From an uncultured Mycoplasmatota bacterium (GTDB lineage Bacteria; Bacillota_I; Bacilli_A; RF39; UBA660), in the NCBI GenBank assembly GCA_900552495.1, contig URZY01000001.1, positions 55,502 to 119,501 of the forward strand: a stretch of DNA of 64,000 bases, in the 5' to 3' direction. The position numbers and the translations under genes were made by a program. Shown here piece after piece: positions 1 through 1,752 of the stretch; within the stretch, counting starts at the first letter, position 1, and the number at the start of each line of letters is the position of its first letter. The notes under the pieces were generated by a model. It saw only the letters and a list, made by a program, of their open reading frames with translations. It was not told the origin of the DNA and did no database searches.

Positions 1-1752
1 CCAATTATTCAAGTTTTGGAAGAAGTTACGGGTACTCCACATGAAAATGAAACTAAGAAAAATTCTATAGTAGCAATTTTATATGATGAAGAAAAGGATA
101 AATATTTAACGATTAATTGGCATGATAAAGGTGGAAGATTGTTTGTAGGAGGCACTATTCAAGATGGAGAGTCTGCTTATGATTGTGCCGTTCGAGAAAT
201 TTTAGAGGAAACAGGTTATAAGAATGTTGAATTTGTTCACGAGCTGCCTAAGATTAATCATCATTACTATGCTTATAATAAGGATAAGTATTTTAATATT
301 GAATGTACAGGGTTCTTATTTAAATTGAAAAATTATGAACAGGATACACAACAACTTGATGATGATGAAGAGTTTGATGTAGAATGGGTTGATGCTAAAG
401 TAATTAATAATGAGATTAAAGACGAATTACACGCAAAAACTTATCAATATGCTATGAATCCTGGGGCTATGTGTGGTGATGGTATTCATATTAATTCAGA
501 AATGTTAGATGGACTAAATAAAGAAGATGCTATTAAAGTAATGTTGGAATGGTTAGAAAAGAATAATTGTGGAGAGAGAAAAGTTAACTACAAGATGCGT
601 GATTGGATTTTCTCTAGACAAAGATTCTGGGGCGAACCAATTCCAATGATTAATTGTCCAAAATGTGGTTGGGTTCCAATGAATGAGGAAGATTTGCCAT
701 TATTACTACCAGATGTTGCTGAGTATGAGCCAACAGAGAATGGGGAGAGTCCATTGGCTAATATTAGTGATTGGGTTAATTGTAAATGTCCAAAATGTGG
801 TCATGATGCAAAGAGAGAAACTGATACAATGCCTAACTGGGCAGGATCTAGTTGGTATTTCTTAAGATTTATGGATGCTCATAATACGCATGAATTTGCT
901 TCAATGGAAGCGATGAAATATTGGAATAGGGTTGATTGGTACAATGGTGGTATGGAACATACGGCGAGACATTTATTATATGCAAGATTTTGGGTACAAT
1001 TTTTATATAATATTGGCTTAGTTCCAAATAAAGAAATGATTTGGACAAGAGTGAGTCATGGTATGGTACTTGGTTCAAATAATGAGAAAATGAGTAAGTC
1101 TAAAGGTAATGTTATTAATCCAGATGATATTGTTAATGAATATGGGGCAGATACGTTACGTTTGTATGAAATGTTTATGGGTGATTATCAACAAGATGCC
1201 CCTTGGAGTACAGATTCATTAAGAGGTTGTAAGAGGTTTATTGATAAAGTTATTAGACTTAAAGATAAAGCTATTGATAGTAATGAACTTACAAAAGATT
1301 TGGAGGTAATTCAACATAAAACAATAAAAAAAGTTACTAATGATTTGACTAATATGGCTTATAATACTGCTGTATCAGCCTTAATGATTTTAGCTAATGA
1401 ATATGATAACCATGAGTTTACTAAAGCCGATTATCGTCTATTATTAACACTTCTTAATCCGATTTCACCACATATAACGGAGGAGTTGAACGAAAAACTT
1501 GGATATGAAGCATTATGCTATGCTGAGTGGCCTGTTTATGATGAGGCAAAAACAGTAGAGACAGAGGTAGAAATTGGTGTCCAAGTAAATGGTAAAGTAC
1601 GTGGAACTATTAAGATTAGTGTTGATGAAGAAGATGAGACAATAAAAAATAAAGCTATGAATGATGAAAATGTTAAACGTCATATAGCTGGAAAAGAAAT
1701 TGTTAAGGTTATTATCATTAAAGGAAGAATTGTTAATATTGTTGTGAAATAA
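1..1752 (+). CDS. leuS: Leucyl-tRNA synthetase, C-terminal ~580 aa; the 5' end lies outside the window. Contains a Nudix-box segment ahead of the catalytic KMSKS region.
   Basis: Frame is open from nt 1. Motifs [25 protein letters not shown] (post-CP1 LeuRS signature) and KMSKSKGN (KMSKS) are present, followed by an anticodon-binding C-terminal region. Near the N-terminus of the visible part: [24 protein letters not shown], an exact Nudix box. Confidence 0.9.
   Translation, partial: [583 protein letters not shown]

Follow-up and report, generated by a model that had tools for sequence, protein, structure and literature searches.

A Nudix hydrolase domain inserted in the CP1 editing domain of leucyl-tRNA synthetase in uncultured gut bacteria

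The CP1 editing domain of leucyl-tRNA synthetase (LeuRS) has been the subject of very detailed study, in part because it is the target of benzoxaborole drugs. Extra catalytic domains are rare on bacterial aminoacyl-tRNA synthetases. In the archaeal/eukaryotic and the apicomplexan LeuRS, CP1 carries insertions (I1ae-I4ae and Iax1-3) which are ordered and whose function is unknown (PMC5038320). The families of editing factors that act in trans comprise, according to a 2024 review, the INS-type proteins, AlaXp and DTD only, and none of them is of the CP1 type (PMC11295145). Neither tRNA nor a synthetase is mentioned in a survey that covers about 80,000 Nudix domains (PMC5389931). The subject of the present analysis is the leuS gene at the beginning of the window, a 64,000-nucleotide (nt) stretch of DNA from a low-GC (29.5%) uncultured gut 'Bacilli' bacterium. 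The LeuRS encoded by this gene has a complete Nudix hydrolase domain inserted in a surface loop of a CP1 that is itself intact.

The window opens inside leuS. Frame 1 is open from base 1 to a stop codon at 1750-1752 and encodes 583 amino acids (aa), which are residues 353-935 of a 935-aa LeuRS (leuS 3' part, window 1-1752; the gene and all of its domains lie on the forward strand). The gene's first 352 codons precede the window. The full gene was reached through the neighbouring PHP-domain gene (window 1905-2801), which led to contig CABSBW010000005.1 of assembly GCA_902476115.1 (locus L001). The contig and the window are identical across all 12,801 overlapping bases; the window's leuS corresponds to L001:8097 onward and the whole gene to L001:7041-9848. 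The full protein (L001:7041-9845) scores 952.1 bits with the LeuRS model TIGR00396, the cutoff being 548.4, in three stretches that are split by the insert. The fragment in the window scores 446 bits, its residues 150-583 covering profile positions 362-843 of 843. Both class I signatures are present, HVGH in the upstream half and KMSKS at window nt 1087-1101, and leuS occurs once in the window. Judged by its sequence, the gene is the housekeeping leuS and encodes a complete LeuRS of the bacterial type, for which leucylation and post-transfer editing are predicted.

In the 935-aa protein the Pfam domains follow one another in the order tRNA-synt_1 (9-213), the CP1 editing domain PF13603 (218-371), NUDIX (373-499), tRNA-synt_1 again and Anticodon_1. 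This order bears out the initial annotation of the window, which had proposed a Nudix fold inserted in the CP1 region and regarded it as an unusual architecture for a synthetase. The inserted domain is about 135 aa long (window 52-456; residues 370-504 of the full-length protein). The Pfam profile PF00293 (NUDIX), a search with which had been suggested as a check, matches residues 21-147 of the window fragment (nt 61-441) at profile positions 4-130 of 134, with 55.6 bits against a cutoff of 21.1. Because the match is full-length, a whole Nudix domain is present, which is more than a motif. The stretch has the full alpha/beta/alpha arrangement of the Nudix fold. The Nudix box, the catalytic metal-binding motif, was correctly read as an exact GX5EX7REUXEEXGU in the visible segment of leuS and is located at residues 51-73 (nt 151-219). 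It is the single match of this pattern across all six frames of the window, where about 6e-7 matches would be expected by chance, and 300 shuffles gave none. This expectation and the full-length Pfam match rule out that the box is a chance motif.

The editing domain that carries the insert is canonical. PF13603 matches residues 218-371 at profile positions 2-152 of 185, with 208 bits, and the CP1 motifs TTRCDT, YGTG and AHDDRDYEF are all kept. These motifs represent T247, T248, R249, D251 and T252, together with D342 and D345, of the E. coli enzyme. Equivalents of T252 and D345, the two catalytic residues named in the initial annotation, are thus found in the recovered upstream half. The Nudix domain is inserted between the strand PIIQVL, which follows the helix of the catalytic Asp, and the last CP1 strand, GDGIHINS. 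Window nt 1-51 encode the end of the CP1 core, with the strand PIIQVLEEV that comes after the AHDDRDYEFAKKFNI helix just upstream, and the linker TGTPHENE into the Nudix domain. The C-terminal part of CP1 (nt 463-579) consists of the last CP1 strand and a helix before the linker strand GERKVNY; it aligns with GVLFNSGEFNGLDHEAAF... of E. coli and with plain LeuRS, that is, LeuRS without a Nudix domain, and has the elements E513-515 and H526-539 in the predicted model. The LeuRS blocks reported downstream of the expected CP1 are in place, GDGIHINS 85 aa after the box and then KMSKS. The loop that receives the insert has about 20 residues in close plain LeuRS. In the E. coli enzyme it corresponds to residues of about 365-380, a loop of 18 residues.

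Since CP1 is intact, the Nudix domain is an addition to the editing domain and not a substitute for it. The initial annotation had also considered that the Nudix domain replaces CP1, and this is refuted: CP1 is complete in the window's protein and in 72 uninterrupted orthologous open reading frames (ORFs), where nothing needs replacing. The analogy that had been drawn to lineages with a degenerate CP1 does not apply to a canonical domain with intact motifs. An opposite outcome had been envisaged too, in which an intact CP1 would be found and the Nudix-like stretch would turn out to be an ordinary part of it. Only the first half of this is the case; CP1 is intact, but the plain LeuRS and the E. 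coli enzyme are without the stretch.

A survey of relatives for the same insertion, as had been recommended, found PF13603 and PF00293 in all of the 120 closest LeuRS (77-100% identity, 935-940 aa) in a collection of 5.8 billion proteins. The CP1::Nudix module is encoded in 267 genomes when 185,579 species are scanned with one genome per species. The best 80 of the 267 are almost all metagenome-assembled genomes (MAGs) of uncultured 'Bacilli/Tenericutes/Mycoplasmatota' from the gut, and their hosts include rabbit, chicken (Ca. Onthocola, Ca. Faecenecus), ruminants and humans. The loci of these 80 species and L001, which is the window's own genome, make up the 81 loci that were examined. At 72 of them there is an uninterrupted ORF of 935-956 aa with the Nudix domain; the other nine are at a contig end, are interrupted or were missed by the search motif. 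All classifiable loci have TTR[CP]DT, HDxRD[YFW] and a perfect Nudix box, nearly all have YGTG, and none of the 81 is of a type in which CP1::Nudix stands free. In 415 pairwise comparisons of orthologues, the ratio of nonsynonymous to synonymous substitution rates (dN/dS) is 0.20 for the Nudix domain; the CP1 core has 0.17, and the two parts of the catalytic body have 0.13 and 0.17. With dS at about 1 the absolute ratios are rough, while the regions are comparable among themselves. The ratio of the Nudix domain is like that of the rest of this essential enzyme, which indicates that the domain is kept by selection.

The names given to these proteins in public databases differ. NCBI labels P0075, P0026 and P0168 as 'class I tRNA ligase family protein', despite a leuS score of 952 bits against 548 for the full-length protein, and other public relatives are labelled 'leucyl-tRNA synthetase'. 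The generic name presumably arises because the insert splits the match to the leuS model.

A query with the Nudix domain only (136 aa) against 1.84 billion representative proteins gave 336 matches at E <= 1e-3. Most of the best 150 of the 336 are LeuRS, whose N-terminal cores are 45-60% identical to that of the window's enzyme and in which the Nudix domain comes after the CP1 core. In the window's protein the match to the CP1 model is interrupted at profile position 142-152, as it is in P0197, P0168, P0170 and P0220, and an alignment of the junctions places the insert of the distant LeuRS in the same loop, with TTRxDT, YGTG and HDxRD intact. In some of the proteins (P0168, P0170, P0176, P0177, P0185 and P0277) there are two or three NUDIX domains, the additional ones being placed after the catalytic core and before CP1 begins; CP1 is thus flanked on both sides. 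The same loop is occupied in a LeuRS from a genome labelled Ca. Peribacteria (L088:4390-7785, GCA_031276875.1), which is one protein of 1,132 aa when TGA is read as a sense codon. The L088 gene has eight in-frame TGA, and a YunG-like insert is also present in its product. Several positions of universally conserved Trp read Arg in this protein (NRIGKS, RQRYRGEP, TQRIF), which hints at an additional reassignment of an Arg codon to Trp. One further synthetase, P0191 (1345 aa), is IleRS-like with a DUF5915 C-terminus and has both NUDIX (270-396) and His_Phos_1 (665-809) in the CP1 region; it is a single sequence.

Free-standing relatives were also found. A profile built from 29 embedded Nudix domains gives strong matches to proteins of about 160 aa that bear the names of Ca. 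Paceibacterota and Ca. Peribacteria, which belong to the candidate phyla radiation (CPR). No linkage to leuS was seen at the loci of the truly free-standing ones (L086, L087 and L089-L092), which are unrelated neighbourhoods. Two candidates for this group were rejected. P0347, from L088, resulted from translation with the wrong genetic code and is part of the 1,132-aa LeuRS, and P0027 is a LeuRS::Nudix fragmented by frameshifts into many small ORFs (L093:4456-6710). There are also Nudix-bearing 'proteins' (P0002, P0021, P0024 and P0029) with unrelated tails (ClpB_D2-small, ZT_dimer, outer-membrane-like) or with broken ORFs, which are probably assembly chimeras or frameshifts and can be mistaken for new architectures.

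The CP1::Nudix module also exists in nature as a separate gene. Fourteen clusters (at 90% identity) consist of proteins of 276-300 aa that have the exact bounds of CP1 from its N- to its C-terminus, with the Nudix domain inside. In L003 (GCA_947626095.1, 10001-10855) and L005 (GCA_947625535.1, 10001-10831), the gene is found 15-17 nt upstream of a plain leuS (L003:10870-13287, L005:10848-13265), the product of which has 806 aa and a CP1 of its own, without Nudix. The operon of this split lineage is made up of a T-box leader (Rfam, 102 bits), a membrane ORF of about 120 aa, CP1::Nudix and leuS. The plain LeuRS is as close to the window's enzyme as the Nudix-bearing orthologues are, with 88% identity in the N-terminal part and 80% in the C-terminal part. 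Its CP1 core is, however, only 51-54% identical, compared with 78-90% among the Nudix-bearing orthologues, which suggests that the CP1 of the plain LeuRS was swapped in the L003/L005 lineage. The T-rich motif of the plain LeuRS has the unusual form TTCIET, which is R249C plus D251E in E. coli numbering.

A neighbour-joining tree was computed for the LeuRS body, with CP1 and Nudix left out (598 columns, without bootstrap); in it, the plain LeuRS falls deep inside the Nudix-bearing enzymes. The simplest reading of the sequences is a fission, in which the cassette would have become a gene of its own and LeuRS would have gained a different or a strongly diverged CP1. The reverse order, with the free-standing CP1::Nudix as the ancestral form, was rejected because the plain LeuRS is nested in the embedded clade, as far as a tree without bootstrap can tell, and because the distant lineages have the embedded form.

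The Nudix domain and the CP1 of the free-standing proteins differ in how well they are conserved. Between L003 and L005, CP1::Nudix is 59.5% identical and leuS 92.9%. Among the free-standing proteins, the Nudix domain has a mean pairwise identity of 78%, and the two parts of CP1 have 55% and 61%. The T-rich motif is mostly VKEVDT, all of these proteins lack the YGTGAIM loop and about 32 aa of CP1, and the Asp equivalent to D345 is the only invariant residue of the editing site. The Nudix box is intact in every copy. These proteins therefore present the fold of an editing domain as a separate gene, but without the conserved hydrolytic residues of the editing site. The loss of the T-rich motif in most and of the YGTG loop in all makes a deacylase activity of the free-standing CP1 doubtful.

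The degeneration of the editing motifs next to a preserved Nudix domain, and the location of that domain in the editing domain of LeuRS, are the observations that could be explained if Nudix were an alternative editing module acting on aminoacyl-adenylate or mischarged tRNA, which is the other form of the replacement idea of the initial annotation. Nudix chemistry is directed at pyrophosphate linkages and not at aminoacyl esters or acyl-phosphates, as is known for the family (PMC5389931). Wherever a degenerate CP1 stands free, the same genome encodes a plain LeuRS that brings a CP1 of its own. No result obtained here supports that aminoacyl esters or aminoacyl-adenylates are hydrolysed. Replacement and alternative editing, taken together, are thus highly improbable.

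The fission also bears on the possibility that the domain is an uncoupled passenger, a house-cleaning Nudix (for example a pyrophosphatase of NTPs or of oxidised nucleotides) that resides in a permissive loop of CP1 and is kept for its own activity. CP1 is a hot spot of lineage-specific insertions whose function is unknown and which are far from the editing site (PMC5038320). Both host groups, the gut Bacilli MAGs and the CPR, have reduced genomes, close homologues of about 160 aa stand in unrelated neighbourhoods, and after the fission the module stands as a separate gene. This gene, however, stayed in the T-box operon of leuS and on a CP1 scaffold, and was not shrunk to a plain Nudix. Moreover, most of the closest Nudix relatives among the 1.84 billion proteins are found in LeuRS, at two sites that flank CP1 and in up to three copies. 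A passenger with no functional tie to LeuRS is accordingly rather unlikely.

The conservation of the box is consistent with an active Nudix domain. Across the 29 synthetase-embedded Nudix domains, which are 23-46% identical, the G, E, R, E, E, E and G of the box and one Trp are invariant. The catalytic box is unchanged in embedded, duplicated and free-standing copies alike. From the invariant box and the purifying selection we infer that the domain is a working pyrophosphohydrolase; most likely it is an active, Mg2+-dependent enzyme coupled to LeuRS. Nudix domains without catalytic activity usually lose residues of the box. A non-catalytic module, in which the Nudix fold would modulate CP1 or LeuRS as a nucleotide sensor or as a structural cap, in the manner of the NrtR-type regulators and CFIm25, is very unlikely, given that the box residues are invariant at this level of divergence and also in the fast-evolving free-standing copies.

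The relatives of the domain provide some information on its substrate. The solved proteins that are nearest by sequence and by structure include 2azw (E. faecalis) and 3fk9, both uncharacterised. To the same set belong Ap4A/Ap6A hydrolases (3i7u, 1f3y, Ndx1, Rv2985 and 1kt9), the decapping enzymes Dcp2 and AvrM14, and DIPP, RppH and NudB. The profile models that most members touch are of the NudB, RppH, YtkD and NudE types, all below their cutoffs; in the equivalog test for RppH and YtkD the scores were 27-31 bits where the cutoffs are 116-154. An assignment of the domain to a named Nudix subfamily was attempted and failed on the sub-cutoff scores and the mixed specificity of the neighbours in the PDB.

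The X-loop is the substrate-specificity loop of Nudix enzymes, and hydrolases of diadenosine polyphosphates (ApnA) have a Tyr there that contacts adenine (PMC5389931). For the asymmetrical ApnA hydrolases, a rule of Dunn et al. (1999; summarised in PMC5389931) places this Tyr about 17 residues past the box. In the window's protein the X-loop region (nt 253-282) has an aromatic pair, Y89 and Y90 of the window fragment, 16 and 17 residues after the box. The sequence INHHY of this loop is invariant in the Bacilli lineage, and nearly all distant members have [YF][YF] at +16/+17, the pair being YY in the window's protein. With regard to the ApnA rule the pair is a correlate only, and the exact register varies among enzymes. 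The domain is also acidic, with a median pI of 4.87 and a net charge of about -11.5 in 52 domains of the Bacilli lineage. E. coli RppH, in contrast, has a pI of 10.0 and a basic, RNA-binding character unlike that of the LeuRS Nudix. The acidity and the aromatic pair tilt the choice to a small adenine-polyphosphate substrate over an RNA chain.

Aminoacyl-tRNA synthetases are documented sources of Ap3-5N (PMC7705103). Gram-positive bacteria normally clear Ap4A with YqeK, and Nudix hydrolases of Ap4A are well known (PMC7705103). As the synthetases are the classic source of Ap3-5N and Nudix enzymes that hydrolyse Ap4A exist, a hydrolase of adenosine-nucleoside polyphosphates (ApnN) that resides on a synthetase is the most economical hypothesis. 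The LeuRS would charge tRNA(Leu) and edit mischarged tRNA(Leu) as usual, and the Nudix domain would add a second, Mg2+-dependent pyrophosphohydrolase activity. ApnN would arise when a nucleotide attacks the aminoacyl-adenylate on the synthetase, and the Nudix domain would cleave it to AMP and NTP at the very enzyme that makes it. Alternatively, the substrate might be another free nucleotide by-product. We consider this explanation as a whole, namely an intact LeuRS and CP1 with an inserted active Nudix domain that acts on a small, polyphosphate-bridged adenine substrate of which ApnN is the best candidate, to be just on the probable side.

Several observations weigh against this explanation. 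None of the named NCBIfam Nudix models comes near its cutoff, the scores being about 20-31 bits against 98-154, and none therefore assigns a subfamily or, with it, a substrate. The structural neighbours span many specificities, an aromatic residue in the X-loop is a correlate and not a proof of an ApnA substrate, and the predicted full-length model has a pTM (predicted template modelling score) of 0.63. The relatives of about 160 aa that have no linkage to leuS indicate that the family can work without the synthetase, and the fusion might therefore be neutral. LeuRS is, in addition, only a modest producer of Ap4A. A review of Ap4A singles out no LeuRS as a producer (PMC7705103).

The decapping enzymes among the neighbours raise the question of whether the substrate is the end of an RNA. 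The acceptor end of tRNA(Leu) would then dock on CP1, and a pyrophosphate-linked group would be stripped by the Nudix domain from the terminus of a tRNA or another RNA, in repair or surveillance, with the free-standing form acting in trans. The candidate groups are a 5' triphosphate, an NAD or Np4A cap, and a 3'-terminal pyrophosphate. RppH models match 28 of the 29 members, and YtkD, Dcp2 and AvrM14 are among the nearest relatives as well; the RppH and YtkD scores are, however, far under their cutoffs, and the strong acidity of the domain (median pI 4.87) differs from the value of about 10 for RppH. The Nudix domain is specifically associated with CP1, the domain to which the tRNA 3' end binds; it is found to the one or the other side of CP1 and stays with the CP1 scaffold where the editing motifs are lost. 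Against this, the free-standing CP1 is without the YGTG loop that helps to hold A76, so that docking of a tRNA end is doubtful there, and the CP1 scaffold may persist simply because the Nudix domain is inserted within it. The IleRS-like P0191 combines a Nudix domain with a histidine phosphatase, and the two could strip a terminal pyrophosphate in two steps. We know of no such tRNA modification in these organisms, and an RNA-end enzyme of this kind is on the whole unlikely.

A more specific proposal of the same kind is that CP1::Nudix is a new tRNA-directed quality-control enzyme, which would cleave a pyrophosphate-linked adduct on the acceptor end of tRNA(Leu) as presented by CP1. It would act in cis in LeuRS and in trans as the fast-evolving paralogue, and the latter would be the first free-standing factor of the CP1 type. 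The adduct could be a 3'-terminal pyrophosphate, a 5' cap or a 5' triphosphate; 3'-terminal pyrophosphates are installed by the tRNA-pyrophosphorylating toxins of the toxSAS group. We regard this proposal as quite improbable and continue to favour the hydrolysis of a small adenine polyphosphate.

On the window fragment, Pfam finds besides NUDIX tRNA-synt_1 (residues 198-402) and Anticodon_1 (439-546). The second half of the catalytic Rossmann fold, the anticodon-binding and the C-terminal domains are encoded by nt 580-1749 (Pfam, TIGR00396), with the anticodon-binding domain at nt 1315-1638. Upstream of leuS in L001 there is a T-box leader (L001:6446-6628, Rfam, 92.8 bits, E 6.5e-21), and between it and leuS lies a small membrane ORF of about 120 aa without a Pfam match (L001 ~6650-7040). 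The same order of T-box and ~120-aa ORF is seen in L003 (9431-9611; 9649-10014) and L005 (9437-9618; 9655-10011), where the last 11-14 nt of the ORF are shared with the gene that follows. Just 3' of the leuS stop codon, at window 1759-1789, a hairpin with an 8-bp stem (AAGAGAGT / ACTCTCTT) and an 11-nt loop precedes a T-run. The arrangement resembles an intrinsic terminator and is a candidate for one; it was spotted by eye, and a terminator scan with a loop limit of 8 nt made no call after leuS.

Downstream of leuS are genes for the PHP-domain protein (1905-2801), a Fic-domain protein (2867-3844) and a Cse60-like small protein (3903-4085), and then for a MurJ-type flippase (4122-5789) and a FemAB-family protein (5962-7263). 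These genes point to a walled bacterium and not to a wall-less Mollicute. No connection to the Nudix insert was seen in the downstream genes at window 1905-7263.

In hundreds of gut-associated species, a nucleotide hydrolase that is conserved, under selection and, as far as the residues tell, apparently active is built into CP1. Together with the related Nudix domain of distant LeuRS and the split-off module, this points to an unrecognised link between leucyl-tRNA synthesis or proofreading on the one hand and nucleotide-polyphosphate metabolism on the other, and the link may involve the ApnN alarmones or possibly the chemistry of the tRNA end. The importance of LeuRS::Nudix depends on its function, for which it is a direct test object, being a single protein with clear box mutants and a natural split version. 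The case also exposes a gap in annotation, as the NCBI name is only 'class I tRNA ligase family protein'. No fusion of LeuRS or of another aminoacyl-tRNA synthetase with Nudix, and no free-standing CP1 homologue, was found described in the literature searched (subscription-only papers lay outside it). What appears to be undescribed is thus a conserved, probably catalytic Nudix insertion in the CP1 of a bona fide LeuRS, plus a free-standing CP1::Nudix paralogue.

The canonical LeuRS of E. coli, T. thermophilus and S. pneumoniae are without Nudix, and the window's LeuRS has 935 aa where its plain orthologue has 806. Some LeuRS of Mollicutes, such as that of Mycoplasma mobile, lack CP1 or have a degenerate one. 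They resemble the present case in coming from low-GC Firmicutes relatives with reduced genomes and in having an atypical CP1, but here CP1 is complete. The insertions I1ae-I4ae and Iax1-3 are short structural elements, whereas the window's insert is an enzyme domain in its own right, whose catalytic motif is conserved. From the Nudix domains of the ApnA hydrolases, RppH, Dcp2 and DIPP, and from 2azw, the LeuRS Nudix differs in being embedded inside another domain. The 276-300-aa CP1::Nudix proteins are like the trans-editing factors (YbaK and ProXp of the INS superfamily, AlaXp and DTD) in being separately encoded homologues of an editing domain. A precedent for a class Ia synthetase with an unrelated catalytic domain is NF040702, the isoleucine--tRNA ligase that is N-acetyltransferase domain-containing, a model that is itself among the hits of the window's LeuRS. 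It concerns another synthetase (IleRS) and another domain (GNAT), and for LeuRS::Nudix there is no curated model or name.

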